A DNA stretch of 64,000 bases from an uncultured Nitrososphaerota archaeon (GTDB lineage: Archaea; Thermoproteota; Nitrososphaeria; Conexivisphaerales; DTJL01). This document shows, piece by piece, positions 947 through 21,255 of the stretch; the stretch's first letter is position 1, and every line of letters starts with the position of its first letter. The notes beneath the pieces are model-generated. The model saw only the letters and a program-made list of their open reading frames with translations, was not told where the DNA came from and searched no databases. The translations under genes were made by a program, and so were the position numbers. Location: NCBI GenBank assembly GCA_963842885.1, contig CAWJIE010000003.1, positions 1-64,000 of the forward strand. The letters run 5' to 3'.

Positions 947-1267
947 GGCTTAGTCCCATAATTGGGACTTTAGTCCGATTTAGTCTTGCTCATCTCCAGG
1001 AGCTTTGGTGAGGGCTTGTAGAGGACCTTGGGCCTGCCCACCCTCCCCTGGACCAGCTCCTCCTTCTCCACAAGGCCGTCTCCCTCCATATGTTTGAGGT
1101 GGGCCATCACCGTCGACCTTGCCAGGCCTGATTTCTCCACCACCTTGGTGAGGGTACGCGGCGTTGACATGCCTCCTTGACAGAGCAGGCCTGCCAGCCT
1201 CTTGCAGCACGAATCCAAGGACATGATGGACTAATTCGGACTTAATTAAGAGTTATGGGACTACGCC
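947..1267. mobile_element. Non-autonomous mini-element with 15-bp TIRs and 9-bp TSD carrying an HTH gene
   Basis: GGCTTAGTCCCATAA (947-961) vs TTATGGGACTACGCC (1253-1267), 14/15 inverted match; CCAGCTTAG flanks both sides (938-946, 1268-1276). Confidence 0.8.
970..1224 (-). CDS. Winged helix-turn-helix (ArsR-like) DNA-binding protein
   Basis: TLTKVVEKSGLARSTVMAHLKHMEGDGLVEK...GRVGRPKVLY; TTAATTAA TATA-like box at 1242-1249. Confidence 0.85.
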   Translation of the reverse strand: MSLDSCCKRLAGLLCQGGMSTPRTLTKVVEKSGLARSTVMAHLKHMEGDGLVEKEELVQGRVGRPKVLYKPSPKLLEMSKTKSD

Positions 1268-1294
1268 CCAGCTTAGCCAAGCTTTTAGGACATC

Positions 1295-1367
1295 GTGATT
1301 TCTTTTCCAGTAGCAAAAAGGCATCCGAATCGTCTCCCGTTGGCGGCCCATTCGCAGCTCCAAGCCC
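1295..1367 (+). repeat. Dispersed repeat copy (core plus CCCATTCGCAG motif)
   Basis: GATTTCTTTTCCAGTAGCAA...GGCCCATTCGCAGCTCCAAGCCC. Confidence 0.75.
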
Positions 1368-1476
1368 ACGTAGGGAATTAGCGGTTGAAATGGATATTGA
1401 TTTCCTTCTCCAGCACTCATGAAAGACGCCCTATGGGCGGGCTTCCTAAAGCCTGCCTTCCGCCAGCGACGCTGTG

Positions 1477-2524
1477 TCAGGCGTCCATGGATTTGAGCTT
1501 TGTCTTGTACCTCTCCCTGTTCGTGGACTCGTACTCCTCCCTTCTCGTGAGCATGAACCAGACGATCTTCAGCATCTTGTTGGCCACGGCTACTACGGCC
1601 TTCTGGTCGCCTCTCCTCTCCTTCACCCGCTCGTAGAAGGACCTCAGCCTCGGGTCGTGCATCGATGCAGACCTCGCCGCCTCCACCATGATCCATCGGA
1701 GCATCTTGGAGCCCTGCTTCGTTATGGCTCCGTGATACTCCACGGAGCCCGATTGGTGGAGAGAGGGCGCCAGCCCAGCCCAGGAAACGAGCTTCCTGTA
1801 GTTGGGGAACCTCTTGATGTCCCCTATCTCGGACCTTATGAGGAGGGCCGAGAAGACGTCCACCCCCGTCAGGCTCAGGAGCAGCCTCACGTCCTCGTCC
1901 TGTGACGCCCTCTCCGTGATCCTGTCGTCCACCCTGGAGATCTGTTCATTGAGGCTCTCCAGGTGGGCCAGGTGGTTGTCCAGAATGAGCCGTTCCATGG
2001 AGGGGAGCTCCAGCGACCTCAGCCACTCCACTCCTCCCTTCCCGAAGAGGTCGGAGAAGTCATGCTTCAGGCCGTTCCTGTCGACCATCGCGTGCACCCT
2101 GTTCTTCACCATGGTGCGCACCCTCACGATCGACGCCCTGTGCCTGATGAGCTCCCTCATCTCCCTGACATCCTTGGGAGGGACGTAGCTCTCGGGTATG
2201 AGATCGGCCCTCAGCAGATGCGCCAGTATCCTGGCGTCCACCCTGTCGCTCTTTCTTTATCCTCGCCCACGCTATGGCCTTGGTCTTCGAAGGGGAGGCC
2301 AACACGGTCGCGACGTGCATGGAATCGAGCCTCTCGTATATGCTTAGCCAGTATGCCCCCGTCGACTCCATCACCACCCTGTCGTCCATGGTGAGCGTCG
2401 CCGCTAGGGAGGATATCCCGTCGCCGTCGTTGTCGAAGCCGAACTCGTCCACTACGGCCCCACGCTCGTCCATCATGGAGACCCTGCACTTGGTCTTGCC
2501 CACGTCGATTCCCACGTATCTCAT
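1477..2524 (-). CDS. IS110 transposase/recombinase (frameshift near 2255)
   Basis: VGIDVGK, VMEST and KSDRVDA (DEDD) motifs; C-terminal WAGLAPSLHQSGS and AVVAVANKM; extra base(s) in ATAAAGAAAGAGC. Confidence 0.93.
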
Positions 2525-2554
2525 TCCACTATTCACTCTCCTTTTTGCAGCTGG

Positions 2555-2680
2555 CATCGGGCTGCATTCACTCATGCGGGCGCCAGGCCCACTTCCTTAG
2601 CAGCTCAGGATTCGCCCAGTCAGCAACACGGTCGCTAGGACCATGCTGGAAATCGGGCTTGCCAGCCCATACGGTATCAG
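2555..2680 (-). ncRNA. Putative bridge/seek RNA of the IS110 element
   Basis: Two stem-internal loop-stem modules; loop strands match target (2644-2652, 2621-2628) and donor junction (2569-2576, 2595-2599). Confidence 0.8.
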
Positions 2681-2861
2681 GGGGCGTCTTTCATAAGGTC
2701 AGCAATAGACAGCAGTGCCCATTTTCGCAGGTCCAAGCCTACGTCGAAGATTAGCGCTGAGTGAAACCCTTGTCATCTCGCGCAGCAAAACACAATCGCA
2801 AGTACCTAGGACTGAACAGCTTTGGGTCTGAGTTAGGCCTCTTCGGCGAATTTGAAAAAGG

Positions 2862-3436
2862 TCAATGCCACTTGCCCATCGTCCTTGACTGCTGCGCCGG
2901 TACGATGCGCGCTACGCTATTGGAAAGTCGACCCGCGACGATACAGGTCTGGACACCGGCTCCGCCCATCCACCAGTTGCCGGTGAAAGTGTGCCTTCCT
3001 GTCATCCCGGCTCCGAAGTTGGTTAGGCAAGTGCATGTACATAGCGCTCCAGACATGGTCGTACGTGGTGAACCCAAGCAGATTCTCATGGGCACGCCAT
3101 CGACGGACAAGACGAAGTAGTTGCTCGGGCTCTCTGCCGTCTTTCTTTGACTGGGCGACATGTCATGCGACATGGCACCCACCAATACCCGTGCATCACA
3201 TAGAAGGCGGAATTTGCCTGCCATGTGGTACTCCCTGTCCAGGCCGTGTTACCGTTACTCCCTGTGGAACCCTGATCGCAGAAGTCCGTGAACCACATAC
3301 GATCTCCGGTCATAGGTGGGGAAGCAGGGCCGTATTGACCCCCGAGCGCCGAGAACAGAATCACAAGCGAGGCGAAGACCATGAGCGCTTTACACTTCAA
3401 TTTTCTACCCTCCTGGGATGAGGAGTGACGTCCCAT
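2862..3436 (-). pseudogene. Frameshifted secreted hypothetical protein
   Basis: Signal peptide-like KCKALMVFASLVILFSALG in 3086..3436, continuing into overlapping ORF 2862..3224. Confidence 0.45.
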
Positions 3437-6336: not shown

Positions 6337-6365
6337 GGTTTCTTTTCCAGCAGCAACAGATATTC
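6337..6365 (+). repeat. Dispersed repeat core (perfect match to IS guides)
   Basis: TTTCTTTTCCAGCAGCAACAGATAT. Confidence 0.75.
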
Positions 6366-6687
6366 GAGAATGCCGAGAGAGGCGGACTTGGACGGCTTGA
6401 AGTTCGCGGTGGAGGCGTCGGTAGGCATCGAACATCCGGGATTGATCCCCTTGCTCTTGTTCCGTCTGGACCCCACCCTTCTGAGCTTTTGCGGTGGCAT
6501 TGAATATGGAGAGGAGGAGCGTGTGCCTCCTCCCCCGGAAGAAGACGACGATTTGACTCCGGGGTAATTATGGCTTAAGGGGCCCCCCGAAGGCCTTGGT
6601 TAGGGTATAGTGTTTGCACTTCATATACTTTGTTAAGCTATAGTGTTTACCCATTGTGAACGATGTCGTGGATGAGGGCCACCTTCG

Positions 6688-6728
6688 GATATCGCAGAAC
6701 AGCGGCTCCCATTCGCAGGTCCAGGCCT
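6688..6728 (+). repeat. Dispersed repeat 3' motif
   Basis: GAACAGCGGCTCCCATTCGCAGGTCCAGGCC; same motif at 17-37, 2718-2740, 8690-8712, 25782-25802. Confidence 0.75.
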
Positions 6729-6766
6729 GCGTCTGAGATGGGCGCGGTGGGCTTGCCACGCCGAAC

Positions 6767-8110
6767 CTAATATGGAATCAGGGATAGGATCGTGGGAAGG
6801 AGCACCGAGGCGAGGATCACGGCGAGCATCACGACTGAGCAGATCGTGGTCAGGAGCTTCGCTCTCGCCTCGACCCGTTTCCTGCCGGAATGGTTGAGCC
6901 AGCCCAATAGGGCCTGACCTCCGTCGAGCGGATAGAGCGGTATCGCGTTGAAGAAGGCCAAGTTCACATTGATGAAGAATATCCAGAACAACGTCAGGGC
7001 GAGAGGGTACCATGAGCCTCCCAGGACAGGCGAAGAATAGTCTGAGTGAAGCGTATCGGAGAACGGAACGACGGTCTCAGCCTGGGAGACGAGCCCAGGA
7101 AGGACAATGTAGAGGAGCGGTTCATGGATGTATGCGGTTGCGTATGTATCCCTTATCGAGGATAGATTCTGGCTGCCTATGGTGACGCCGATGAATCCAA
7201 TGCTCTTGTTGTCTGGATTGGCGCCCAGCGTGATTGGATATGTGTGAATTACGCCCTGCTGGCCGATTGATACCGAGAGGGTCTCGTTCGGCATGGTGCC
7301 AGACATGAAAGTCGCCAGGCTCTCCTCGGAATAGACCTGCGTGCCATTGACTGCGGTTATGAGGTCGCCGGCCTGAAGGTGACCCTCGCTGTGCAGCTCG
7401 GAAGCTGGACTGGACGCGGAATACTGCGTGACCAGCGCGCCGCTGAACACCGGGACAAGACCCCCCAAGAGCAGGATCATCAGGATCAGGGCTGCCGCGG
7501 CGACGACGACGTTGCTTCCCGGCCCGCCCGCCAGGATTCTCCCCGAATCCCTCGCCCTCAGCTTCTGGATCAATCCCTCGTCCATCTCGACGAAGGCTCC
7601 GATCGGAACGAAGAGGAAGAACAGAAGGCCGGTCGATTTTACCGGTAGCTTCAGCCTCCGTGCGATGACTCCGTGGGTCCCTTCGTGGACGACGACCGCG
7701 ACGATTATTCCTATTATGCCGTAGAGGACCGGGATGTATCGGTTGATTCCGGGAAGCAGCAGGTACGAAGTTATCGCAGGCCGGCTTCCTGTGACAACGT
7801 TGTTGGCTTGGCACTGAGCGACCGGAGCGGCTCCGATCGCGCAACGGAAGGCGAGGGTCCCGCCTAGGACGAGGTACGTCTCGTCGAGCATCAGCCAGAT
7901 CATGAATGCGCCGGCCGCTATTGTGATGGCGATGTAGAGCCAACCGATGTCAGAGAAAATCCGATAGCGAGCCAGATCGTCGAGGAGGTTAAGCAGCCTC
8001 TTGGTCCGCACCATCACGATCCCCCAGCTGAAAGTCACGGACTTTGGTTCTTCTCCAGGTCTTTCAGGCTCGGCGCCTTTTTGTCCATCCTGTAAGTTTG
8101 GATCCGGCAA
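6767..8110 (-). CDS. Site-2 protease (M50) with PDZ domain
   Basis: HEGTH and NAIPLYPLDGG motifs; PDZ-like LQAGDLITAVNG. Confidence 0.93.
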   Translation of the reverse strand: MPDPNLQDGQKGAEPERPGEEPKSVTFSWGIVMVRTKRLLNLLDDLARYRIFSDIGWLYIAITIAAGAFMIWLMLDETYLVLGGTLAFRCAIGAAPVAQCQANNVVTGSRPAITSYLLLPGINRYIPVLYGIIGIIVAVVVHEGTHGVIARRLKLPVKSTGLLFFLFVPIGAFVEMDEGLIQKLRARDSGRILAGGPGSNVVVAAAALILMILLLGGLVPVFSGALVTQYSASSPASELHSEGHLQAGDLITAVNGTQVYSEESLATFMSGTMPNETLSVSIGQQGVIHTYPITLGANPDNKSIGFIGVTIGSQNLSSIRDTYATAYIHEPLLYIVLPGLVSQAETVVPFSDTLHSDYSSPVLGGSWYPLALTLFWIFFINVNLAFFNAIPLYPLDGGQALLGWLNHSGRKRVEARAKLLTTICSVVMLAVILASVLLPTILSLIPY

Positions 8111-8325
8111 GATTCGATCGGCAAATAGCGGATCGGCAGAAGAGCGCTAATAACTCTATGGGCGAGTCTGCTCCTCTATTTCGTGCGAAGGCATGTTGAC
8201 GATGGAGCTCCAGGAGGGTTAGCCCAGACCACCCTATCATCCCGTTCCAACCTTGATATGTCTGAACGATCCTGTGACTCGTATCAGAAAGACATAACTA
8301 TTGCGCTGCGAATTCATTACCGAAG

Positions 8326-8487
8326 TTGACCGATTACGCGCTGGAAGAGGAGAAACTGAAGAAGCTCTACGACCAAGCGCGCACACAGGGAAACAAGAAG
8401 AAGAAGAAGGAATACAAGGAGAAGATAGCCGAACTGAACCGACTCCGCAAGTCCGAGAAGCGAGAAAGCGTCAGATCGAAGAGCTAG
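8326..8487 (+). CDS. Small basic coiled-coil protein (53 aa)
   Basis: TTG start; TDYALEEEKLKKLYDQARTQGNKKKKKEYKEKIAELNRLRK. Confidence 0.5.
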   Translation: MTDYALEEEKLKKLYDQARTQGNKKKKKEYKEKIAELNRLRKSEKRESVRSKS

Positions 8488-9036
8488 GGTTTCCTAGTGC
8501 CTTTCTCCCTTGAGAAACAAGGTGCCGCAAAGTATGCGGCTGATGCAGGCATGAAGGAGGCGCTCGACCAACCGAAGGGGTTGAGTTTCGTTATTCCTTC
8601 CAACGGTAATTCTGAACGACCTTTTGACCCATGGAAGCGCAATTCCTGTTTGTCTTAGCCTAGAGGTTGGGCAAACTTGAACTAGACAAGGCCCATTCGC
8701 AGGTCCAAGCCCATGTCTAGGATTGGCGGTTGGCGACATCGCTGCTCTTTCCAACGGCAATAGATGTCCAGTTAGGCCGATGAAGAGGCCGGCTCTAAGC
8801 GACTTTGTGGTCAATGGTGGTCTTTGGCCTTATTCTGAAAGCCGTCATGCTCGCCGCCAGCAGGACAACAATTGGCCCCGCGGCCAACATGAATCTTCGC
8901 TGCTTGTTTCCCTTGGCACTTTAGGACATGTGCTTCCCAGTATCTGGACGCTCTGGAATCGTGGGCTCAAATGGGACTGGGCCGTTGGTTCCTGTCCCGG
9001 CCGGAGCATCATAATAAATGATGGCTAACGCAACCT

Positions 9037-9696
9037 CTACGCAACTAAACCCGAGTCCGAGTATCCCATACTCTCCATAGTACCTAGGAAGTTATAGTCG
9101 ACTAGGTTTATGTCGGATAGCTGGTATATCCATTTATAGCCCCATAATCCCGGCGTGACAAGGCGTAGCCCCTGTGTCAGCGGAACCCCGTTGTTCTCAA
9201 AGGCTACGACGATGTTATTCTGCATGCCAGTCGCCAATGTAAGGTCCGTAGAATAGTTATCGGTCGCGTAGAATGCGACCTTGATGGCTGTCGTTGATGC
9301 GTTAGCCCTCTGTAATATCGACGCCAAGCTCACTCCCGTCCAGTTACCTCCGGCAATCACGCCAGTTGGGGGGCCTATGCAATACATGGTGGCGTTAACA
9401 GTCGTCCACGGCATCGTGATAAGATCATAGAAAGTCAAGTTGAGAGGGTGTTGAACCAGCCCGGTCACTAGTAGGGAAATGCCGGAGTTCCTGCTCCAGC
9501 CTGTGGCGTTCAAGAGTTGCGATTGAAGGGTTGAAACCTGATAGTTCAACCCTGCTATTTGGTTTTGAAGGTCGGATTGTGTCTGCTGCAGCGAGTACGT
9601 CTGCAAGGTTCCGAATGCCGCGACAACCAGAATGCAGACTACCAAGAAAGCATAGCCATTTGATGGCTTCATTCTGTTAATGAGGTACTTCCACAC
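9037..9696 (-). CDS. Membrane-anchored molybdopterin-binding oxidoreductase (sulfite oxidase/MsrP-like domain)
   Basis: LLVTGLV, MYC Mo-ligand Cys, WTGVSL, LRLVTPGLWGYKWI. Confidence 0.85.
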   Translation of the reverse strand: MWKYLINRMKPSNGYAFLVVCILVVAAFGTLQTYSLQQTQSDLQNQIAGLNYQVSTLQSQLLNATGWSRNSGISLLVTGLVQHPLNLTFYDLITMPWTTVNATMYCIGPPTGVIAGGNWTGVSLASILQRANASTTAIKVAFYATDNYSTDLTLATGMQNNIVVAFENNGVPLTQGLRLVTPGLWGYKWIYQLSDINLVDYNFLGTMESMGYSDSGLVA

Positions 9697-9985
9697 CTAA
9701 AAGGATTTGAGGGTAGATAGAACTCAAGCTTTCGTGTTGACCTTTTTGGCGAGTTTCATCTGCGCTGGCTTCTAGTCTCCAGGACTACCTTGCAGAAACC
9801 CTCGATGGCGTTAGGCGACTCTTTGATAGGATCATACTTCCCGTTTACGGGAGCTTTCGTGCCTCCTTGACTGTCTCCCATCATCTGGTCATTGTTCTTC
9901 TGAACACGGGCACGGCGATCATGAGGTGGAAGAGGGCCGCGCAGAGGGCTCCATGGTGCCGTTGGCCGAGGGCATTGCTCTCACT

Positions 9986-10130
9986 CAATTAACCTATTGT
10001 TTTCAATAACATGAGGATGAATAAGTGAAAGTGTGGTCGGTCAGGTCGATGGCATTGATTTCTTTTCTAGCAGCAACGGATATCCAAGACTGTGACGAGA
10101 ACAGCGGCCACCTTCCCTTCAAGCCTTAGA
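9986..10130 (+). repeat. Near full-length copy of dispersed repeat
   Basis: CAATTAACCTATTGTTTTCAATAACATG...GTCGGTCAGGTCGATGGCATTGATTTCTTTTCTAGCAGCAACGGATATCCAAG. Confidence 0.85.
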
Positions 10131-10207
10131 GCCCTATAGGACTGGAGGGCCGTGGATGCCTACAAGGGATGAATGGAAGGAAGCGCTAGTTCAGACGTAG
10201 GCGTGGG

Positions 10208-11560
10208 TTGAACAGATCAAGGAGAATCCTCGTCGCTGGGATAACCGTAGCCGTGGCGGTGTTGGTGGTAGCGATGTTCGTCCCTGTCGTCCGCCTACTT
10301 GCGCGTATATACAGATTTAAGTATGTGAATACCATTAACGGTCCCGTGCGGTCCTCCCGTGCAACGATGGCAGGGGCGGTCACTCTGGCGCTCTGCCTTT
10401 GCGTTGTCCCCGTTCTGGTGACGGTGAGCCTACCATCTCCTGGGTTCAAGAACACTAGGCCGTTGAACTACGGGGTCCTTACGTCCGGCTCATGGAACGA
10501 CACGTCCCCCGCCTGGAGCCCGGACGGGACGCGGATAGCGTTCTCCTCTGACCGCAACGGAGGATGGGGGATTTACGTCATCACCCCCCAGGGCACGGGG
10601 GAGAAGCAGCTCACCCCGTCGGGCATGGTGGCGATGAATCCCTCTTGGAGCCCCGACTCGTCGCGCATCGCCTACTGGAGCCTGGAGGGCGACGTCTCCT
10701 CGATCAAGGTAGTGACAGTTTCCACTGACTCCGTAGTCACCGTGAGCGGCGTCGATAGCGCCGTCAACATGACCCCCGTGTGGAGCCCGGACGGTTCGCA
10801 CCTCCTCTTCTACGTGGAGGCGCCGACGTTGCAGCTAACGTGCGTGGACATGGGCACACACTCGGAGCGGGTCGTGGCGGCGGTGAACAGCCCCGACTTC
10901 AATCCCATCTGGGCCGGGAACGACCGGGTGATATACTCTGATACAGAGAGCGGGCTCTACATGATCAAGTGGACGAACCTGACTTCGGGCGAGACAGGGA
11001 TCCTGAGCGAAGGCGGAGCCAACTACTGGGCGGGGGCGATAAGCCCAGACGGCACCATGATATCCTACTATTCAAACGGGACTGGGTTGGCGCTGCAGCA
11101 AACGGCTGTTGGAGGCATTGGCCAGTGGGGGGGGACTGGGTCGCTGCTGCAACCGCCTCCCGAAGGCGTTAACGTCTGGGTCAACCTGCTGAACATAAGC
11201 GAGCTTGACGTCTGGACCGAAGGCCTGAGTGCCTACCATGCGTCGTACCTTTACCTTTTCACCACTCATGTTGATATGGTGCGTCCGGGGGAAGTCATCT
11301 CCGCGGATCCGCTACGTTGGAGCCCCGTTGGCGGCCTCGTGGCGTGCGTGCTCAACAGCTCGTCTTCCGGTCTGGGGGTCTACGTCTGGAACGTGAGCAA
11401 CAACGCCATAATGCAGATGGGTCCGCCGGAGGCACAATCGACGCAGCCCAGTTGGGACCCCGAAGGGACGGTCCTAGCCTTTAGCTCTAACTCCTCCGGC
11501 TTTTGGCATATCTGGATCGCGGAGTACATCGCACCTTACAATCCCGCGGCACCACCCTAA
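10208..11560 (+). CDS. TolB-like PD40 beta-propeller secreted protein (start may be 10346 or 10367)
   Basis: Repeated PAWSPDG / PSWSPDS / PVWSPDG / PSWDPEG motifs. Confidence 0.88.
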   Translation: MNRSRRILVAGITVAVAVLVVAMFVPVVRLLARIYRFKYVNTINGPVRSSRATMAGAVTLALCLCVVPVLVTVSLPSPGFKNTRPLNYGVLTSGSWNDTSPAWSPDGTRIAFSSDRNGGWGIYVITPQGTGEKQLTPSGMVAMNPSWSPDSSRIAYWSLEGDVSSIKVVTVSTDSVVTVSGVDSAVNMTPVWSPDGSHLLFYVEAPTLQLTCVDMGTHSERVVAAVNSPDFNPIWAGNDRVIYSDTESGLYMIKWTNLTSGETGILSEGGANYWAGAISPDGTMISYYSNGTGLALQQTAVGGIGQWGGTGSLLQPPPEGVNVWVNLLNISELDVWTEGLSAYHASYLYLFTTHVDMVRPGEVISADPLRWSPVGGLVACVLNSSSSGLGVYVWNVSNNAIMQMGPPEAQSTQPSWDPEGTVLAFSSNSSGFWHIWIAEYIAPYNPAAPP

Positions 11561-12013
11561 CTGGGTCAGCAGGATCGTTGACCGCGGCGCAATCCCATAA
11601 GTCGCAATTGAAGAGCATTTTTCTGTCACAATACTATTCATCTCGGCTCGGGCGCGGTGATCCCTGGTGGTCCGTCAGGCAACCTTCCTTTCACTGCGAC
11701 ACCGCCGACCCGCCAGTCAAAGTAGGTTCGCTCATGGGTGACCGACCCAGCATCCGCGGCGCCGGTCCCTTGTGGGGCGTTCCATATTCGATTGGTACGC
11801 CTTCCCCGCACCTCAGGCCGCACGTTCTCTGACCCTTCATTCAGGCCCAGCGTCTACGCGGACCGAACGGCCCTCAGGGCGTTTCAAATGCATATGTGAT
11901 TCGAAGGACAGTCGCCGTCACCGCGCCTAATGGGGCCAACTGGAGAAAAGGTGGACCTTCCAGGTAGTGAACACACATGCGTATTAGTCGCCGCCGACGA
12001 TAGAGTATTGTCG

Positions 12014-12418
12014 ATGAATTCTAGAACGACGGCGGCGATCTTGGCGGTAGTCATTATCGTGGTTACTGCAGCAGCCTTGCTGTACTTCGGCGCAGGCGTC
12101 GGTCAGAAATTTCAGGTAAGTGATTTGCAGATGAGAAGTACGGACCTCAACCTCCTCGGGTCGGTGTCATTCACGTTATCAAACCAGAATGACGTGCCCA
12201 TTTCCTCAGTCTATGTAATGGTGAATAGGACAAATCCTGCTTATTCCCCAAGTGATCTGAAGGTATCAAGTAGCGACCCGATTTCCCCAGGACAGTCGAG
12301 AGTACTTCAGTTCTTGTACCCGGATGTGACCCGAGGTCAGAGTTATTACATTACCATAACGGTTGACTTTGGAGACGGGAGTAGTGGCTCTTACAGCGCT
12401 ACCGTTCCAGGCGAGTAG
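12014..12418 (+). CDS. Membrane-anchored Ig-like hypothetical protein
   Basis: N-terminal TM segment, beta-rich body, ISPGQS motif. Confidence 0.65.
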   Translation: MNSRTTAAILAVVIIVVTAAALLYFGAGVGQKFQVSDLQMRSTDLNLLGSVSFTLSNQNDVPISSVYVMVNRTNPAYSPSDLKVSSSDPISPGQSRVLQFLYPDVTRGQSYYITITVDFGDGSSGSYSATVPGE

Positions 12419-12570
12419 AGTCACCTTTCCTTTAACGGTCCACCGCAAGGTTCCTCCGGGCTAGGGCCCGATTAGGTACGCTGGTGCCAACCCCCGAAGG
12501 ACGGAACTGGCACATCGGGCGGATTCTAGGAGAAAAGGGCGTGGAAGTTGACGCCGTGGTCCATCACAAC

Positions 12571-12650
12571 GGATATTGATTTCTTTTCCAGCGGCAGCAG
12601 ATATCCAAAAGATACAGAGGGACAAGCGGCCCCCTCGCCTCCAAACCTTA
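12571..12650 (+). repeat. Dispersed repeat copy
   Basis: GGATATTGATTTCTTTTCCAGCGGCAGCAGATATCCAA...AAGCGGCCC. Confidence 0.8.
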
Positions 12651-12819
12651 GCCGTGCAAGGAGTTCAGGCACAACCAGAAAGGCAGAAGCTCAATTACCT
12701 ATCGAGTCAAGTCTAAGATCGATGACCAGAGGGTTACCCGTACGTCTGGATAGCGGCCTTCCTTTCTGCTAGTCACTTGAGGAAGCTTCACTTCATCCTC
12801 CAACGAGAGCCTGGTCGAT

Positions 12820-12839
12820 CGCCGCCGCAGTCAGATTGT
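12820..12839 (+). repeat. 20-bp direct repeat (second copy 20922-20941)
   Basis: CGCCGCCGCAGTCAGATTGT identical at both sites. Confidence 0.8.
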
Positions 12840-13176
12840 CGTTGCTGAGCGACCGTTCCCTTCATGTGCGAATGCGCAATCACATGAACCCCGAAAAGGA
12901 ACACCTTTGAGCTCCAAGGTCTTCCTGATGAGTGATTTTCGCAGGTCTGGGAACCACGACCCATGGCTGAGGCAAACGGTCTAGCTTACCAGGGAAACGA
13001 CACGGTTTACCATAGACGGTCTACACAAACAGCGCGCTATATGTATAACTTTTGGTGCTTCAAATGCTTATTAGCTGCGAAGCCGCATCCAGCGTCCGGA
13101 GAGTGTATTACTCACGACCATGAATTTTCTCCTTACTAGAGGAAAACGATTTTGTCAACTAGGAGGTAGCTCCTAG

Positions 13177-14160
13177 ATGACAACAGAAACTACCGAAAAG
13201 AAGCAAACGACGAGAAGGGACTTCTTGAAGGGAGCAGGAGCAGGCGCAGTGGTGGGCGCCGTAGTTGTGGCAGGTGTCGAGGAAGGGATAAGGATACCGG
13301 GCCTGCCGTCAAAGACATCCACATCCACGTCGACTAAGACAATCACGGGTGGTACGACCACGGCAACGACCACGGCAACAACTACAGCAACGGCAACGAC
13401 CACGAAGACGGTGGTGCCACCGGCAGTCACCGTCGCACTGGCGGCCACTCCGGGCACCGTTTCAGCAGGTTCCTCCGTCACGCTCACCGCTACTCCAAGC
13501 GGTGGGACTTCTCCATACACCATAAGCATCGCATGCGGCGATGGAAGCACCTTGACTGCGAGCGGGTCTCACACGTATACGGCTGGCGGGAACTACACGG
13601 CCCTCGTGACCGTCACCGACAGCAACGGGATGCAGGGCTACGGCACTGCGACGGTGATGGTTACCGGCGCTCCGACGCCAGTTCCGCCGGCGACGTCCAA
13701 AGTAGTGACGCTCAATATCAACAACACGCCTTACACGCTAGAGGTGCAGAGCAACTGGACCCTTCTCGACACGATAAGGAACTCGCTACACATGTTCGCG
13801 ACGAAGGAGGGATGCTCAAGGGGCGAATGCGGAGCGTGCACCGTCATAGCTGACGGTAAAGCGATCTACTCATGTCAGGTGCTGGCTGTGGAGGCAGAAA
13901 AGATGCAGATAACCACCCTCGAAGGGCTGGGCGATTATGGCTCTGCCCTCACTGCGGTGCAGAAGGCCTTCATCCAGTACGAGGGGGCCCAGTGCGGGTA
14001 CTGCACTCCTGGCATGATAATGAGCGCCACTGCGCTCCTGAACGCCAATCCAACGCCGACGACGGACGAGATTCTGGCGGCCATGGCTGGGAACCTATGC
14101 ACGTGCGGCAACTACAACAAGATTCTACAGGCAATATCCTCGGTCGGAGGTGGATCCTAG
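13177..14160 (+). CDS. Mo-hydroxylase 2x[2Fe-2S] subunit with Tat signal, Thr-rich linker and PKD-like domain (PaoA/YagT-like)
   Basis: TRRDFLK; KEGCSRGECGAC; QCGYCTPG; NLCTCG; SHTYTAGGNYTALVTVTDS. Confidence 0.93.
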   Translation: MTTETTEKKQTTRRDFLKGAGAGAVVGAVVVAGVEEGIRIPGLPSKTSTSTSTKTITGGTTTATTTATTTATATTTKTVVPPAVTVALAATPGTVSAGSSVTLTATPSGGTSPYTISIACGDGSTLTASGSHTYTAGGNYTALVTVTDSNGMQGYGTATVMVTGAPTPVPPATSKVVTLNINNTPYTLEVQSNWTLLDTIRNSLHMFATKEGCSRGECGACTVIADGKAIYSCQVLAVEAEKMQITTLEGLGDYGSALTAVQKAFIQYEGAQCGYCTPGMIMSATALLNANPTPTTDEILAAMAGNLCTCGNYNKILQAISSVGGGS

Positions 14161-14161
14161 G

Positions 14162-16372
14162 ATGTCATTCAATGTGATCGGCGTCAAGACATCACCAGAC
14201 AAGCTCGCCACGCAGAAGGCCACAGGCAAACACGATTTCTCGACTGATCACGACTTCGAAGGGCTCCTGTACGCGAGGGCTCTGGGAAGCCCGTATCCCC
14301 ATGCGAAGATAACCGCCATAGACTCCAGCGCTGTGCTGGCGCTTCCTGGCGTCAAGGCAGTCACGACGTACCAGGACTGTCCGGTGCTGAGCCAAGAGCT
14401 GTTCTATGGTGGTCAGGAAGTGGCCCTGGTCGCCGCCACGGATCCACACATAGCTGACCAAGCCGTGGAGCTGTTCAACGTGACGTACCAGCAGCTCCCA
14501 TTCGTCACGGATGCCTTGGCAGCGGCTAAATCTGGCGCTCCGTTGGTGGGGGTCGTTCCGAACAGCAACATCATAGGGTCGCCGACGGTCATCAGTTGGG
14601 GCGACGCTGATGCCGGGCTCGCGGCGTCCGACGTGACGGTGACGGACACCGTCGGGTGGTCGGCCGGCTACCAGCATTCGACATTGCAAGCTCGAGCATG
14701 CATCGCCGTGTGGGACCAGAGCACGCAGGGCGGACTGACCATCTACACCAATTCACAGGATGTATTCTCCATGAGGGCGAACTTTGCGGGCGCCCTGGGG
14801 CTTCCGTTGACCAGCGTGACCGTCATAAGTCACGGAACGGGAGGCGCCCAGGGGGACCTTCAGACGCAAGGGGAGTGGTGCATAATGGCAGCCGTGTTGG
14901 CGAAGAAGGCGGGCGCTCCGGTAAAGTACAACCTTTCGCGAAGGGAGAACTACCTCAACGCCACTCACCAATACCCTGACTATGCCACGATATCGATCGG
15001 GGCTATGAACGACGGCACAATCAATGCGATTGAAGGAACGTTCTACAGCGACGTGGGCGCAATGGTGGCTCCTATGGTGGGAGACGCGATCTCTCCTCTC
15101 GAGCTGACATTCAACGTTCCTAACGCGAAATTCACCGGGTACTCTGTCGTCACCAACAAACCTCGTTGCTACGCTTGGAGGTGCGTCGGGGAGCCAGGAG
15201 GCCTCTTCGACATGGATCCCATCATCGAACAGCTGTGCACGAAGTTGAGCATGGACCCAGTGCAGTTCAGGGTGAAGAACGTCAAGACCATCAACGACAC
15301 GGACAACGGTACGGGGAAGAACTTCACGAGCATGGCATTGGCGGAATGCCTGAACACTGCTGCCACCACCATTGGTTGGTCGAGCAAGTGGCACAAACCG
15401 GGCACCAAGGTGCTCTCCGACGGCAGGTATCACGGAATCGGCGTCAGCGGATTCGTCTGCAACAAGGGAGCGTATTCGAGCGACAACAGCACCATGATAG
15501 TCACTAGCACCACGGGCGGCCAGTTCCTCGCGTTCATCGGTCATACCGGCATCCAGCAGTCACCATCGGCCCAGACGTCCATCGTAGCCGAGGCTCTGGG
15601 CGTGAACGAAGCCGATGTGCAGATTGGGGACTATGGAAACACGTCGACCACACAGAACTGTGGGAACCAGGGAGGAAGCACCAGGATAATCACGGCAGGC
15701 ACGGCCGGCATGAGGGCAGGGCAGGACCTCCTGTCGCAGTTATTCGCGCTAGCCGCACCGATGCTGAACACTACGGCCGACAAGCTTTCCGCCGCCAAAG
15801 GGCAGATCTACCTCACATCCGACCCGACGAAGTTCGTGACCCATGCGCAGGTCCTCGCCACGGCACCGCCGCTGGTGGGCATCGGACGCGCGACGCCATA
15901 CACCGACAAGGTCGTTCGGACCGACGTCGCCTGCTGCGCGGAGGTGGCGGTCGACACCGAAACGGGCGCTGTGGAGGTGCTGAACATCGTGGATGTTGAT
16001 GACCTAGGCAGGGCGATACACTGGATGGGAGCGGTTGGGCAGATAGATGGAGGCACGGTGTTCGATGTTGGGCAAGAGCTTTTCTGGAGCCAAATCACGG
16101 ACCCACAGACTGGCTTCGTAGTGAACCCAAGTTACCTAGACCAAAAGTTCCCCACCATTATGGACGTGCCTCTGGGCAGCAACTGCACCTCGATCCCATA
16201 CGAAGCGGTTGATTCGTTCGGCCCATACGGCGCGAAGGGCCTAGCCGAACCGTCGCTGGGGACCCAGCACGTCGCCATAAGCAACGCCATCTATAACGCG
16301 ACAGGCTTCTTCGTGAGGCAACAGCCTGCGGATCCACGGGCGGTGCTGAAGGCGTTGGGGAAGAGCATGTAG
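14162..16372 (+). CDS. Xanthine/aldehyde oxidoreductase family molybdopterin-binding subunit
   Basis: SPYPHAKI, GQIDGG, and GAKGLAEP with catalytic Glu. Confidence 0.95.
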   Translation: MSFNVIGVKTSPDKLATQKATGKHDFSTDHDFEGLLYARALGSPYPHAKITAIDSSAVLALPGVKAVTTYQDCPVLSQELFYGGQEVALVAATDPHIADQAVELFNVTYQQLPFVTDALAAAKSGAPLVGVVPNSNIIGSPTVISWGDADAGLAASDVTVTDTVGWSAGYQHSTLQARACIAVWDQSTQGGLTIYTNSQDVFSMRANFAGALGLPLTSVTVISHGTGGAQGDLQTQGEWCIMAAVLAKKAGAPVKYNLSRRENYLNATHQYPDYATISIGAMNDGTINAIEGTFYSDVGAMVAPMVGDAISPLELTFNVPNAKFTGYSVVTNKPRCYAWRCVGEPGGLFDMDPIIEQLCTKLSMDPVQFRVKNVKTINDTDNGTGKNFTSMALAECLNTAATTIGWSSKWHKPGTKVLSDGRYHGIGVSGFVCNKGAYSSDNSTMIVTSTTGGQFLAFIGHTGIQQSPSAQTSIVAEALGVNEADVQIGDYGNTSTTQNCGNQGGSTRIITAGTAGMRAGQDLLSQLFALAAPMLNTTADKLSAAKGQIYLTSDPTKFVTHAQVLATAPPLVGIGRATPYTDKVVRTDVACCAEVAVDTETGAVEVLNIVDVDDLGRAIHWMGAVGQIDGGTVFDVGQELFWSQITDPQTGFVVNPSYLDQKFPTIMDVPLGSNCTSIPYEAVDSFGPYGAKGLAEPSLGTQHVAISNAIYNATGFFVRQQPADPRAVLKALGKSM

Positions 16373-16382
16373 GTGAAATGGA

Positions 16383-17342
16383 ATGAAAGTCATCAACCAC
16401 TATGACGCGACATCGGTCTCTGACGCCGTTGCTATGCTGGACAAGTACGGAAGCGCAGCCAAGGTCATGGCCGGAGGTACGGAACTCCTCCACTCGATGA
16501 AGGGATTCATCAGGACGGATCTCCCCGACTACATCATCAACCTCAAGACCATTCCTGGTCTCGATGCGATAGCCGCGGGCTCGTCTGGGCTGACGGTGGG
16601 GCCGCTCGCAACGTTGAACAGCGTCGCTACGGACAGTAACGTCATCAGCACCTATCCCATGTTGGCGCAGGCCGCCAAGGCGGTCGCGACGAGCCAGACT
16701 AGGAACCTCGGGACCATAGGTGGAAACATCAGCCAGGAGGTGTGGTGTTGGTACTACCGCTGGGAGCACAACCAATTCAACTGCCTGCGGAAGGGAGGAA
16801 GCACCTGCTACGCGACGAGCGGCGACAACAGATACCACAGCATTTTCGGCGGCCCTGCAGGCTGCTATTCTGTGGCTCCGTCGGACACTGCCATCGCGCT
16901 GCTCGCCCTCGGGGCATCGGTCAAGACGAGCAAGCAGACCATACCGATCAGCCAGTTCTTCAAGGACCTCTCTCCGGGTCACGTCCTCGCCGCCGACGAA
17001 ATAATCACAGAGATCGACGTGCCGACTCCTCCGACGGGCAACAAGCAGGTCTTCAGCAAGTTCAGCCTCAGGCAAAGCTTCGACTTCGCCGTCGCAAGCG
17101 TGGGCCTGATGTGTGCGCCGGCGACATCGACCATCACCACGGCCAACATCTGGCTGGGTGGAGTCGCTCCGACTCCGATCGAGGCGACTGGAGCAGAGAC
17201 CGCCCTGAAAGGCAACGCCATCAGTTCCACAGTAGCAGCGGCCGCTGGAGCAGCCGCAGTAGCTAACGCCATTCCGATGAGCGGCAACGCATACAAGGTT
17301 AATATCGTCCAGACTCTAGTAAGCAGAGCGATACTGACGTAG
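16383..17342 (+). CDS. Mo-hydroxylase FAD subunit with [4Fe-4S] insert (PaoB/YagS-like)
   Basis: AGGTEL, RNLGTIGGNI, CWYYR..C..KGGSTC..C, PSD, LGGVAPTP. Confidence 0.95.
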   Translation: MKVINHYDATSVSDAVAMLDKYGSAAKVMAGGTELLHSMKGFIRTDLPDYIINLKTIPGLDAIAAGSSGLTVGPLATLNSVATDSNVISTYPMLAQAAKAVATSQTRNLGTIGGNISQEVWCWYYRWEHNQFNCLRKGGSTCYATSGDNRYHSIFGGPAGCYSVAPSDTAIALLALGASVKTSKQTIPISQFFKDLSPGHVLAADEIITEIDVPTPPTGNKQVFSKFSLRQSFDFAVASVGLMCAPATSTITTANIWLGGVAPTPIEATGAETALKGNAISSTVAAAAGAAAVANAIPMSGNAYKVNIVQTLVSRAILT

Positions 17343-17443
17343 GAAGTTGAGGATGGAGTTTGTCGCTTCATCCCCAACACCCCTTTTTCTTTGGCATGTA
17401 ACGCTTATGGTGAAATGGTTATGAAGACGAGTCGAATATCAGG

Positions 17444-17680
17444 GTGACGCACATGGAGAATGAAATGGACTTGACGCCGCTAGAGGCGCAATATGCGCCG
17501 TTGTGGGTGGCTGTCAAGGTCACCGCGAGGGACGGAATCGGTCAGCCCACAAGAGGTGTCTTGCTTTGCAAGCATTTGAGCAGACAGATGTTATCCCATG
17601 AACTTAATAATGTGACCGAGAAGGACGTCTGCATCTTCCAGGCGATGCAAGAAAGGAAAGGGTCTACGGTGGTCATATAA
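17444..17680 (+). CDS. Small protein, DUF5678-like
   Basis: YAPLWVAV motif; coupled (TAATG) to retropepsin gene. Confidence 0.55.
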   Translation: MTHMENEMDLTPLEAQYAPLWVAVKVTARDGIGQPTRGVLLCKHLSRQMLSHELNNVTEKDVCIFQAMQERKGSTVVI

Positions 17681-18102
17681 TGGGTCTGATCCTTCCTCTG
17701 CGCCGCGGCAAGCCGTTCTTCGTTAGGGTCCATGGGAGATACGGGATTCACGAGCTGCGCGCAGTCATCGACACGGCTTCCGAACTCTGTTTGATACAGA
17801 AGAAGGACGCGCTCGAGCTGGGTTACTCGCCGTTCTATTCTACCGGCTGGGCCAACGCCGGGCCAGGTACCACTGGCGTCACCCCCTTCAACATTATCGA
17901 GATGCCAACCTTGACCCTTGACAAGGTGGAGGTCGGCAGTGTGGTCTCGGAGAACGTACCGGCGGCTGCCTGCGACTTCATCGAGGACCTCGGGGTCGAC
18001 CTCATTCTGGGCCAGAGTTTCCTCAAGGGCTACGAGGCCTGTTTCGATTTTGCGAAGGAAAGGGTCGTGCTGACGAAGAAATCCGAAGGGGGATCGACTT
18101 GA
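17680..18102 (+). CDS. Retropepsin-like (clan AA) aspartic protease
   Basis: AVIDTASE and DLILGQSFL motifs. Confidence 0.85.
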   Translation: MGLILPLRRGKPFFVRVHGRYGIHELRAVIDTASELCLIQKKDALELGYSPFYSTGWANAGPGTTGVTPFNIIEMPTLTLDKVEVGSVVSENVPAAACDFIEDLGVDLILGQSFLKGYEACFDFAKERVVLTKKSEGGST

Positions 18103-18251
18103 GCCTCAAGCTTTCCTCCGTCCTCGCGGATGGCTGCTCAACGAAGCAGCGCATGGTGGATGTCTGGCGGCTCGAAAATCCATATGCTCTACCTTCGTGG
18201 CTTCTACGCCGGCCTCATCCTGCTTCCGGGTGGTGAACATCGAGTACCTTC

Positions 18252-18896
18252 TTGCGATGCTTGGCAGCGGGTAGCACGCTGCTTCTGGTCGTGGCGTTGA
18301 CTTCAGGGGCCTCTTGCGGGGCCGTCGTCCCATGGAAAGGCCCGTCCTTGGTGAGTCCGTTCTCCATTGCTGACCCTCAACAGGTTCAACCGGTCAATTA
18401 CACGCTAGAGCTTCGTACCGACAACACGACCTACTTTGTCGGCGACACTGCCACGTTCCAAGGACATCTGGGCCCCGGCCGCGTCGCCAGGATCCTGCTC
18501 ACGATAACGATAACAGATGGCAGCCAGGAGACGCGTTTCGTGTCCTCCAATAGCACTGGAGATTTCGACTTTGAGTATTATCTGGCTTCGGCGGGACCCT
18601 ACAGTGCCTACGCTCAACTCGTCGACCCGAGCATTAACAGCTCCATGACCAGCAATTCCGTCGGCTTTCTGGTTTCCTATCTCCCCATGACGAACACGAC
18701 GGTTACGTCTAGCACGACGGTTTCGTCCAGCACGACCTCGTCAGCTAACGGCACCAAAGCGGCGACTGCCGGCGGTCGACTGCCGAGTTGGTTGTTGCCG
18801 TTGCTCGCGCTGGTCATGGGGTTAATCTTGGCATTAGTAGTGCTGGTTCAAATCATTAAGAGGACCAAGCCTTTCGGCCGTCCTTCCTCGGAATAG
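18252..18896 (+). CDS. Secreted Ig-like protein with C-terminal membrane anchor
   Basis: Signal peptide, YFVGDTATFQG, S/T linker, C-terminal TM plus basic tail. Confidence 0.7.
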   Translation: MRCLAAGSTLLLVVALTSGASCGAVVPWKGPSLVSPFSIADPQQVQPVNYTLELRTDNTTYFVGDTATFQGHLGPGRVARILLTITITDGSQETRFVSSNSTGDFDFEYYLASAGPYSAYAQLVDPSINSSMTSNSVGFLVSYLPMTNTTVTSSTTVSSSTTSSANGTKAATAGGRLPSWLLPLLALVMGLILALVVLVQIIKRTKPFGRPSSE

Positions 18897-18934
18897 CGCA
18901 TGACGGGTCCGCTGCAAGGTTAATAACCGCCGCT

Positions 18935-19339
18935 GTGGTATTCATCCTGTTGCGCAAGGGTCGTAGAAAGTGGTTCCTGTCTGCGGCAATGGTCAGCATC
19001 GTCGTTGTGCTCATCGTGGCATATCAGGTTGCTGCAAGCCCCGTATCCCCGGGGTCCGCCAAGCCCCAGCCGACTCCAAGCGGGCAGACCTATTCCGTGG
19101 CCTTCCTTGAATACGGATTGTCAGCAGATTCCGCGTGGACTGTTACTTTCAATGGCACGACCTACCGAGGTCAATCTGCTTCGATAACCATCTACGGAGC
19201 CGCGGAAGGGAACTACTCGTACGCCATTGGTGACATTGAAGGCTACACCGCATCTCCGTCATCAGGTTTCGTCGCCGTCAATGGATCCAATGTGAATCAG
19301 GTCATAGCTTTCAGCCCGGCAAGTGTTCCATCGACGTAG
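18935..19339 (+). CDS. Membrane-anchored protein with archaeal surface repeat (Y.V.F.E.GL....W.V..NG)
   Basis: YSVAFLEYGLSADSAWTVTFNG...GNYSY. Confidence 0.7.
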   Translation: MVFILLRKGRRKWFLSAAMVSIVVVLIVAYQVAASPVSPGSAKPQPTPSGQTYSVAFLEYGLSADSAWTVTFNGTTYRGQSASITIYGAAEGNYSYAIGDIEGYTASPSSGFVAVNGSNVNQVIAFSPASVPST

Positions 19340-19835
19340 CGTCCCCTCGGGCAAGAAAACGAACAAGCTTAATACTTCAATTGACGCCAGGTCATATCGG
19401 TGGCGTTGGTCTTTGGATGAAACGACCGAGATACTTGAGCGGGTCATCTATGAGCGGCCGAGCAAGCTCCCTGTGGTTAGCCCGCAGGGCTCGTTCACGT
19501 GGCAGGTCCCAGTCTCCTTGGCTGTCCCCGAGGAGCTCAAGCCTGGGATGACGCTGGTTGTTAAGGTCACATCCGAGGTTGGTGTGGTTGCACAGCTCCT
19601 CAAGAGGGCGCCAGGCGGGGCGATGGGCGCGCTTGTTCTTAGCCCACCGCTATCGTCGAACCTGAATTTCGAATACCCAGTGGACGTTCCGGGGTTCTAT
19701 GAGCTGAAGCTGTCACAGGGCGAACTTTACCCGGTGGCGGACGCGACTGTGAGAATGGCAATAAGGGTCTCGAAGCCCAAGGACGACGGCGAGGAAGCTG
19801 CCAGTCGCGAGGACATGCCGGGCGAGCGAAGCTAG
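19323..19835 (+). CDS. Hypothetical protein (true start probably near 19413)
   Basis: Coding-like ORF downstream of TTAATA box. Confidence 0.5.
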   Translation: MFHRRSVPSGKKTNKLNTSIDARSYRWRWSLDETTEILERVIYERPSKLPVVSPQGSFTWQVPVSLAVPEELKPGMTLVVKVTSEVGVVAQLLKRAPGGAMGALVLSPPLSSNLNFEYPVDVPGFYELKLSQGELYPVADATVRMAIRVSKPKDDGEEAASREDMPGERS

Positions 19836-20406
19836 ATTCCGTTGGTATCTCCGGAAGCAATCTGCAAACCGGCGAACCCAAGGGGGGAGCATATGGCGAG
19901 GCCCAATCCATCTTAATAGGTGAGAGGATGGGTATTCACCGCTCCAGAGACAACCGCCATCCATGCGTGATAGCTGCCGGATGCGTCACAACATAAGGCA
20001 ACATTCATGCTATCGGGCCCCCATGTCGGCTCCGGGAATCGCCGACGGCTGATTCCACACGCACCATCGTCGTGTGTCTTTAGTTCCAGACATAGACATC
20101 GCGGCCCGGAAGGGGACTGTCCAACACGCAGGCCAGTGGGTTGCCATCTGGACTCCACCGAAGCTGACTTGTTATGACCACACGCTCCGGCCACTGCAGT
20201 CCAAAGGCCATTGATGCCGACAGGATCTCCGTCAAGCTCGGTCCTTGGCTCTTCATGGTGGGGAGGTTGGGTGTGGGTTATCGGTGAACTACCTCCTCTG
20301 GGTCCTAGATACTCAAGAGGGGACCAAGCATATGCAACGCGCAGACTCGAACTCCGAATTAGTGTCAATCACACTCACGGAAAATCAAGCGAGAATCTTG
20401 CTCAGC

Positions 20407-20910: not shown

Positions 20911-21255
20911 GTGACCGATGACGCCGCCGCAGTCAGATTGTTCGGACCCTGGTTAACAGAGCGATAATGACGTAAGAAGTTGAGGAAGAGGATTGTCACT
21001 GCACCCCCCCCCCCAAGCAGCCCTCTTTGTATATTTTTGTCAGGCAGGTCTTATTCTGCTTATGGTAAGTTATCTATTAAGATAAGTCAAATATCATGGT
21101 GAGTATCACATGACATAAGACAATCGTGTGGAAATCGACTTGACCAACATAGAAGTCAAGTACGCACTTTTCGTAATCGGCCAAAGCCTCCTTGGCAGTT
21201 ACAAGCCCGTCTACGGTTTTCCACGGAGAATCATGGAGCAGGCGGAGGGATCAGC

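Follow-up and report, generated by a model that had tools for sequence, protein, structure and literature searches.

The analysed stretch of DNA (hereafter the window; 64,000 nt, C3:1-64000 of a 2.03-Mb, 11-contig genome which is 87% complete) carries near its left end an insertion sequence (IS) of the IS110 family, which encodes on the minus strand a recombinase and, in the non-coding end of 175 nt upstream of the recombinase gene, a predicted bridge (seek) RNA; the non-coding end downstream of the gene measures 61 nt. The element is very probably an archaeal member of the family built on the IS1111 plan, in which a DEDD/Ser recombinase would be directed by an RNA of ~117 nt whose guides are set to a dispersed repeat of the host genome. 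The archaeal origin, claimed in an earlier sequence-only reading of the window, is confirmed by the genome, which contains an archaeal signal recognition particle (SRP) RNA (127.1 bits, cut-off 96.5) and a full-length archaeal small subunit (SSU) rRNA (1483 bits).

Searching the genome at DNA level returned three full-length copies of the ~1.28-kb element, namely copy A in the window, copy B at C3:189230-190510 (96% identity) and copy C at C7:19002-20285 (94% identity). The plus strand at copy A reads TCTCCAG (1407-1413), CA (1414-1415), the IS body, CA (2700-2701) and GCAATAGA (2702-2709), and all three copies have a left flank ending in TCCAG-CA and a right flank starting with CA-GCAATAGA. 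Beyond about 20 nt, the flanks of copies A, B and C are unrelated, hence the copies arose by independent insertions, each into a different copy of one repeat. CA is the sole dinucleotide which can be assigned to either side at both junctions in all three copies, and empty repeats carry a single CA; thus, the core comprises 2 nt and a target duplication is absent. The sequence-only reading had stated that removal of 1416-2701 restores the core of a dispersed repeat, which it took for the target of the element. Sequence and junctions read as it described, and the same position of the repeat is occupied by all three copies. The features are compiled in Table 1.

Table 1. Features of copy A and of its target (window coordinates)
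Feature	Position	Strand	Basis or remark
Left half of split target (7 nt) and core CA	1407..1415	+	matches loop 1 5' strand at 8/9 positions
IS body, 1284 bp	1416..2699	-	recombinase gene and RNA on minus strand; ends common to the three genome copies
Subterminal inverted repeat (13 bp), arm downstream of the gene (RE)	1419..1431	.	direct reading; kept in homologues
C-terminal recombinase frame, 254 aa (rest of DEDD domain and Transposase_20)	1477..2241	-	PF02371, E 2.1e-24
CTTT/CTTT tandem duplication	2251..2258	.	frame shifted by 4 additional nt, immediately ahead of the third and fourth catalytic Asp
N-terminal recombinase frame (MRYVGIDVGK...; first Asp and Glu of DEDD)	2259..2524	-	PF01548, E 2.2e-12
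Bridge RNA core, 117 nt (predicted)	2550..2666	-	comparative structure; model R1, 125.1 bits at 2547-2670
Loop 2 3' strand CAUGAGUG	2569..2576	-	equals last 6 nt of far end plus core; core-reading bases follow TG/AG
Loop 2 5' strand UAAGGAAGU	2591..2599	-	first 5 nt complementary to nt 2-6 of RNA-coding end; weak covariation
Loop 1 3' strand UGUUGCUG (2628-2621) plus AC	2619..2628	-	equals upstream flank plus core; AC equals first 2 nt of the element
Inner hairpin of target-binding module	2629..2643	-	comparative structure
Loop 1 5' strand UUUCCAGCA	2644..2652	-	complementary to core and flank downstream of the element (recombinase-sense strand taken as top)
Subterminal inverted repeat (13 bp), arm at the RNA-coding end (LE)	2682..2694	.	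direct reading; kept in homologues
Candidate archaeal TATA-like element for the RNA, TTATGAAAG	2688..2696	-	located in the inverted repeat, some 26 nt ahead of P1; conserved in homologues
Second core copy CA (2700-2701) and right half of split target (GCAATA)	2700..2707	+	direct reading
Unoccupied repeat copy	6344..6357	+	both guides match perfectly, 14/14

The recombinase is matched by both PF01548 and PF02371, which in copy A fall on two different frames. Since the 4-nt duplication breaks the frame between E53 and D92, this copy cannot make a full-length recombinase. The duplication is absent from copies B and C in the alignment and from the contigs of four public metagenome runs, and copies B and C have intact reading frames of 347 aa. 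For the intact copy B, the model NF033542 (“IS110 family RNA-guided transposase”) gave 271.9 bits at a cut-off of 140. In the alignment to the IS621 recombinase of known structure (8wt6; two aligned stretches, E 5.8e-13), Asp7, Glu53, Asp92, Asp95 and Ser257 are found opposite D11, E60, D102, D105 and S241, the residues named as catalytic for IS621 (PMC11208158). These five residues are invariant in eight homologues; the loci L013 and L021 are frameshifted and were excluded from the protein alignment but kept in the DNA analyses. The motif GL-P----SG is present as GLAPSLHQSG. Concerning the earlier claim of an IS110 recombinase, the family is supported by both Pfam domains and NF033542, but guide order and inverted repeats are those of the IS1111 type and not of IS621/IS110.

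In the comparative structure of the RNA, an outer helix P1 (2666-2661 with 2555-2550) encloses two modules, each of which consists of a stem, an internal loop and a hairpin. RNAalifold, applied to 73 non-identical sequences, predicted both stem/loop/stem modules independently and left the four guide strands unpaired; these are the loop strings reported in the sequence-only reading, read on the minus strand. With P1 included, 98.4% of 1886 cells form standard pairs, compared to 21-41% when the partners are slid by 1-3 columns, and double (compensatory) changes are found in 51 cells versus 12.7 +/- 3.1 in column shuffles. Pairs of the G-U type are common in the stems; for instance, one pair has 48 G-U and two others have 72 U-G. 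In module 2, the outer stem does not vary among the aligned sequences and is, therefore, neutral with respect to the structure, neither supporting nor contradicting it. A search of the own genome with the model R1 gave exactly three RNAs, each within one of the three elements, so that orphan guides are absent; in the phylum, 5 of 150 other sampled genomes have matches. Among copies A to C, the RNA stems and guide strands are conserved except for one guide base and one to three hairpin-loop bases. TTATGAAAG could possibly serve as an archaeal TATA-like element for the predicted RNA.

Covariation of the guides with the insertion sites was analyzed in homologues from two sources. The first comprised 13 loci in species-representative genomes (metagenome-assembled genomes, MAGs, of Bathyarchaeia and Nitrososphaerales, one unclassified archaeon and one distant bacterial match), among which the close homologues have 60-74% identity; the second comprised 80 metagenome loci, which are the best 80 of 241 relatives. 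The small set consisted of eight distinct elements (13 loci), and the large set of 94 elements (three own copies, 11 genome loci and 80 metagenome loci). Of the latter, 85 were parsed, the other nine being truncated or without anchor, and 75 had both flanks, 72 of them unique. Scoring was performed in recombinase orientation.

In the small set, the loop 1 3' strand equals the upstream flank plus core at 7/8 positions in seven elements and at 6/8 in L020. The reverse-complemented 5' strand equals the core plus downstream flank at 7-8/8 positions in seven of the eight elements, and at 3/8 in L019. Among the 40,320 permutations of guides and flanks, the true pairing alone reaches the observed sum. 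The large set gave the same picture: the 3' strand agrees with the upstream flank plus core at ≥ 6/7 positions in 69 of 72 elements, and the 5' strand, once reverse-complemented, with the core and the downstream flank at ≥ 6/8 positions in 62 of 72. The latter figure is conservative, because L030 and L057 were parsed at a later CATGAG, whereas the flank at the first CATGAG fits their guides; in L074, the flank at the first CATGAG gives 6/8 as judged by eye. For the 40 distinct guide pairs, the true pairing has means of 6.6/7 and 6.55/8 in comparison to 3.49 and 3.30 for mismatched pairings, and none of 100,000 re-pairings reached the observed sum of 526 (maximum 343).

These numbers bear directly on the assumption that the matches between loops and flanks are due to chance and that the target is chosen by protein-DNA contacts alone. 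The loop strands are indeed short (7-9 nt) and the window RNA alone folds not significantly better than shuffles; nevertheless, in view of 0/100,000 re-pairings of 40 guide pairs coming near the observed value and 1/40,320 in the independent small set, this explanation is effectively refuted by the covariation tests and its probability is practically nil. A bispecific bridge RNA had been proposed in the sequence-only reading, with covariation of loop strands and insertion sites among homologues as a check, and the result of this check was strongly positive in both sets. Either other copies of this IS at sites unrelated to the repeat or a lack of guide-target covariation had been named there as speaking against the proposal; all three copies reside in the repeat, and the covariation is present.

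Several loci showed peculiarities at their borders or targets. At L019 (about 1322-1479 and 2598), the 5' guide, which matches 3/8 positions of the adjacent downstream flank, matches 7/8 at a site 5 nt further when inspected by eye, and L056 and L058 have an extra TGAG between the element end and the expected target. The loci L110 and L116, two copies of a more distant relative in a closed genome of the same class (G088), have different 3' guides, each of which matches its own upstream flank by eye; this looks like natural retargeting within one genome. In a Bathyarchaeota MAG, three of four copies of a related element (L014, L015 and L017; boundary about 1332-1336) are situated in the last codons of open frames of at least 341, 443 and 415 aa. 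At their ends, the frames encode a hydrophobic helix (...LLLF), and basic codons follow in the downstream flank. The multi-copy target of this element, which has a different guide pair, is apparently a sequence coding for a C-terminal membrane anchor.

Loop 2 appears to relate to the ends of the element itself. In the window, CAUGAGUG agrees at 8/8 positions with the terminal 6 nt of the far end followed by the core, and UAAGG can pair with nt 2-6 of the near end, in agreement with the earlier statement that a second module fits the circle junction with 8/8 on one side and 5 nt on the other. In every element compared, the 3' strand of loop 2 is likewise identical to the terminal 6 nt of the far end and the core. 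The first 5 nt of the 5' strand form a mean of 3.98 Watson-Crick pairs with the own near end and 3.54 with other end types, which amounts to a weak covariation; the element ends barely vary, which leaves little room for testing this strand. A switch of the core from TG to AG is followed in the 3' strands of both loops: of 42 unique rows, 28 are TG/TG/TG and eight are AG/AG/AG. In 13 elements with an AG core, the loop 1 5' strand ends with CT in nine cases and with CC or CA in four. The two bases after the 3' guide, compared to the first two bases of the element (n=42), are AC/AC in 26, AT/AT in four and TC/TC in two cases, and discordant in ten. By its sequence, this dinucleotide would recall the handshake guides described for IS621 (PMC11208158), but it is located on the bottom-strand guide.

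The target defined by the guides comprises 14 nt, i.e., 7 nt, the core CA and a further 5 nt. Unoccupied sites of this kind in the genome include four perfect ones, 15 with one G-U/G-T wobble and seven with two or three wobbles. Allowing at most one substitution, 25 sites were found for the 14-mer and 0-2 for each of 20 shuffled 14-mers. Each occupied site has two differences from the perfect 14-mer, both compatible with G-U/G-T pairing; the guides therefore fit the consensus better than the occupied site (14/14 at the unoccupied copy of Table 1), as the sequence-only reading had pointed out. The target is part of a conserved non-coding repeat of ~50 nt. For its 18-mer core, 41 matches with ≤ 3 mismatches were obtained, and two for the reversed pattern. 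A 22-mer pattern (≤ 2 mismatches) occurs in 26 copies in this genome, 23 in one genome of the same genus and two in another, and in 0 copies in the other 18 relatives searched. The repeat is restricted to part of the genus.

A dispersed repeat which co-occurs with an element could have arisen from the latter as footprints or as solo ends. The window abounds in both, holding seven of the 41 repeat matches as well as the occupied copy. Yet the same-genus genome with 23 repeats yielded no copy of the element, which argues that the repeat is independent of it, although this absence is weak evidence since the assembly is fragmented (140 contigs) and an element could be unassembled. Furthermore, the repeat contains no sequence of the element ends, and insertion in this family is described as scarless (PMC11208160). 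An origin of the repeat from the element is highly improbable; the repeat is a host, or at least an independent, sequence exploited by the element and not its by-product.

Other identities of the repeat were considered and rejected. As to a coding sequence (C-terminal anchor), frames reading through the repeat stay open for a median of 74-81 aa, and only four (same strand) plus five (opposite strand) of the 41 copies are in frames of ≥ 150 aa. As to a C/D-box small RNA (sRNA), no D box was recognized by eye and Rfam gave no match. As to a stable palindrome like that of repetitive extragenic palindromic (REP) elements, five folded copies had z-scores between -0.39 and +1.72, with a weak GATAT/ATATC stem alone.

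The seven repeat matches of the window (18-mer, ≤ 3 mismatches) and its occupied copy fall within 64 kb of a 2.03-Mb genome. On the plus strand are the occupied copy and the first five matches (6344-23807); the later ones are on the minus strand. Two further motifs accompany the repeat. Motif 2 (~21 nt, TTCGCAGGTCCAAGCC-type) has 63 matches in the genome with none for the reversed control, and occurs in the window at 24, 1351, 2724, 5665, 6712 and 8696. Motif 3 (~19 nt, TTCAATAACATAAAGATGA-type) has 31 matches, again with none for the reversed control, and occurs at 5716, 10002, 23883 and 49593. Within 200 nt of the target repeat, both motifs are always on the same strand as the repeat and their spacings are mostly recurrent, i.e., about -50 and +35 to +50 (one +96) for motif 2, and -81 to -62 and about +76 for motif 3. 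The target repeat and motifs 2 and 3 together form mosaic intergenic repeats. In the alignment, two copies of motif 3 apparently precede tRNA-like 3' ends directly, a position that points to a possible promoter. Elsewhere in the window, a SoxC-like cytochrome b (53094-54563, minus strand) and a molybdopterin dehydrogenase pair of the glyceraldehyde/xanthine dehydrogenase type (13177-16372, plus strand) suggest an aerobic heterotrophic archaeon.

From the anatomy, homology, structure covariation, guide-target covariation and target inventory given above, the following mechanism is proposed. Loop 1 of the predicted RNA would read the target and loop 2, in the same way, the joined ends of the element itself; the recombinase would exchange strands at the 2-nt core (TG in recombinase orientation), whereupon the excised circle would be inserted without target duplication. 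As loop 1 is set to a 14-nt site in the repeat, some 19 to 25 further sites would be available. The action of the guide as RNA, the circular intermediate and the chemistry of strand exchange are inferred from homology with IS621, ISEc11 and ISEc21. Alternatively, the loops could act as DNA, for example protein-bound or as single-stranded hairpins pairing with the target, with RNA not being involved. The covariation with the flanks indicates a potential for base pairing and cannot tell RNA from DNA. However, homologous recombinases are reported to be purified together with RNA of this non-coding region and to need it in trans (PMC11208160; PMC11187229), and the common G-U pairs in the stems as well as the wobble-compatible mismatches between guides and targets fit RNA better. 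Pairing at the DNA level is accordingly very unlikely.

Several results weigh against an RNA-guided element that is set to the repeat and able to move. First, the recombinase of copy A is broken; this copy keeps intact RNA and ends and could, hence, move only with the enzyme from the two intact copies. Second, the contigs of four public DNA (metagenome) runs, which were compared with window positions 1200-2900, contained no joint of precise excision or of a circle. The missing joint is weak evidence, because contigs drop rare forms. Third, the element was not found in four other genomes of the genus or in one of the family, so that its activity in the lineage is not traceable. Fourth, the window RNA folded alone has a minimum free energy (MFE) of -55.3 kcal/mol with a z-score of -1.72, which is not significant; the MFE structure pairs the loop 1 strands with each other, because the target is quasi-palindromic, and the structure consequently rests on the comparative data. 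Fifth, Rfam gave no match at gathering cut-off for the whole window and, thus, no family for comparison; for 2480-2760 at E ≤ 10, two chance-level matches alone were obtained (mir-338 and sR30, E 7-10). Sixth, pairing of the loop 2 5' strand with the near end is partial, covering the first 5 nt and not the four core-proximal nt. Finally, 10 of the 72 elements stay below 6/8 for the loop 1 5' strand, and after correction of the boundaries mentioned above a misfit remains for L019 and others.

Some of these points would be expected if the element were a decaying relic, i.e., three old insertions of which nothing moves, with a fossil match of guide and target and without present parasitism or rearrangement of the repeats. 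Besides the frameshift in copy A, the missing joints and the absence from five related genomes, the divergence of the copies by 4-6% is in line with this. On the other hand, the 347-aa frame is undamaged in two copies and includes every catalytic residue, stems and guides of the RNA are conserved among the three copies save for the few bases given above, and the 4-nt duplication is missing in the contigs of all four runs. Loose ends of contigs at the element borders continue into other variants of the repeat, for example one whose right flank is of the CAACAGGTATCC type, a hint that related populations carry further insertions; this evidence is not independent, since the samples may include the source of the assembly. 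Altogether, a relic is considered rather unlikely. Two skips in the contigs, from 1316 or 1344 to 2724, were examined as candidates for an empty site and rejected, as they have other letters between the two sides and join two copies of a second flanking repeat motif.

For the placement within the family, the published descriptions of its two groups were used. In the IS110 group (IS621, ISEc21), the bottom-strand guide comes first and the RNA is encoded upstream of the gene (PMC11208160; PMC11187229). For the IS1111 group, the top-strand guide is described as coming first with the RNA downstream of the gene (PMC11187229), together with subterminal inverted repeats of 7-17 bp (PMC11208160), a GL-P----S(t)G motif and a recombinase of 330-350 aa (PMC11187229). 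The present element has the top-strand guide at the 5' side, subterminal inverted repeats of 13 bp, the GL-P----SG motif and 347 aa, all of which are IS1111 traits, but its long non-coding region with the RNA lies upstream (175 nt) and not downstream (61 nt), as in the IS110 group. With regard to the IS110 group, the bottom-strand guide is not first, and the subterminal repeats are 13 bp instead of absent or very short. Exceptions of this kind are reported, namely ISMtsp17, which belongs to the IS1111 cluster and has its non-coding region upstream, and the archaeal ISHvo10 with long regions on both sides (PMC11187229). As judged from its sequence, the element appears to be an archaeal member of a known IS110-family kind, with the IS1111 plan in a layout documented as an exception; on the circular form, this layout amounts to a crossover site which has changed sides relative to the RNA. 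Protein similarity (full-length tblastn) amounts to 25-28% identity with IS5075, ISEc11, IS1618, IS5708 and ISKpn2 alike and does not settle the branch.

The clade was found in MAGs of Bathyarchaeia and Nitrososphaerales, in many contigs of sediment, peat and freshwater metagenomes and in this genome. A more far-reaching, tentative interpretation, which we consider possible but hold to be the less likely case, regards this archaeal clade as a third distinct layout of the IS110 family. It would combine guide order and inverted repeats of the IS1111 type with a crossover site on the opposite side of the RNA, a three-way junction formed by closure of the two guide modules, a bottom-strand guide prolonged by 2 nt that track the element start (the mirror of the IS621 handshake) and, possibly, a TATA-like box in the inverted repeat; its 40 or more guide pairs would be frequently retargeted to multi-copy sequences, such as the present non-coding repeat and the membrane-anchor codons of the Bathyarchaeota MAG. 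If this were true, the clade would be a natural library of programmable recombinases working in archaea. Recombinases with bridge or seek RNAs are under active development as programmable tools for genome writing, and the examples characterized in the cited literature are all bacterial. The 90-odd relatives constitute an internally validated archaeal set with 40 distinct natural guide pairs and their targets. This set indicates that the guides obey the same logic in archaea and that the position of the RNA and the order of the guides can be separated from each other as traits, and it could supply enzymes for archaeal hosts. For the organism, a genus-restricted non-coding repeat is the landing pad of the only IS110-family element of the genome. 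The picture of how the IS110 family works is left unchanged by this element.

Archaeal IS110 recombinases as such are known, with 662 reported in 2,835 archaeal genomes (bioRxiv 10.1101/2024.06.21.599552). No title or abstract on an archaeal bridge RNA with its targets was found; it is possible that such elements are already tabulated in the supplements to Durrant et al. and Siddiquee et al. The closest annotated relatives in the plasmid collection are “IS110 family transposase” genes on haloarchaeal megaplasmids (Halanaeroarchaeum, Natrinema and Haloarcula), with 41-45% identity over 95% of the protein. Upstream of the Halanaeroarchaeum gene, the model R1 has a weak match (10.6 bits, E 0.0085). 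For the copy on a Sphingobium plasmid (L121), the sole R1 match at E ≤ 0.01 covers the arms of the outer helix alone and lies inside the annotated gene.

Targeting of a dispersed repeat is the norm for the IS110 family, and both mechanism and lifestyle are already described. For IS621, 144 of 173 mapped insertion sites are reported to be in REP elements (Durrant et al. 2024, PMC11208160), and for ISPpu9 and ISPpu10 of Pseudomonas putida all insertions are reported in copies of one repeated intergenic sequence (PMC12288879; bioRxiv 10.64898/2026.03.19.712850). The present element resembles ISPpu9 and ISPpu10 in family and in its insertion into one intergenic repeat, but those two are bacterial. 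Concerning the traits of REP targeting, its target is a dispersed extragenic repeat but not a stable palindrome.

In comparison to the IS1111-group seekRNA elements ISEc11, ISKpn4 and ISPa11 as described by Siddiquee et al. 2024 (PMC11187229), the element shares the subterminal inverted repeats, the top-strand match at the 5' side, the GL-P----SG motif and a recombinase length within the range of the group, but differs in having the long non-coding region upstream of the gene. Its protein has ~25% full-length identity to ISEc11 and IS5075, which is no closer than to other members of the family. In the upstream position of the long non-coding region, it is like ISMtsp17 and ISHvo10, a likeness drawn from the description in that paper alone (PMC11187229). 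With IS621 of E. coli, as described in PMC11208160 and PMC11208158, it has in common the two Pfam domains and the DEDD and Ser residues of the recombinase, a predicted RNA encoded upstream of the gene, of whose two internal loops one would address the target and the other, probably, the joined ends, a core of 2 nt to which all four guide strands would extend, insertion without a scar and a dispersed intergenic repeat as target. Unlike IS621, the guide order in each loop is reversed, with the strand complementary to the top strand at the 5' side, 13-bp subterminal inverted repeats are present, an outer helix closes both modules, the core is TG/AG instead of CT, the protein is distant, the target repeat is not a stable palindrome, and the host is an archaeon.

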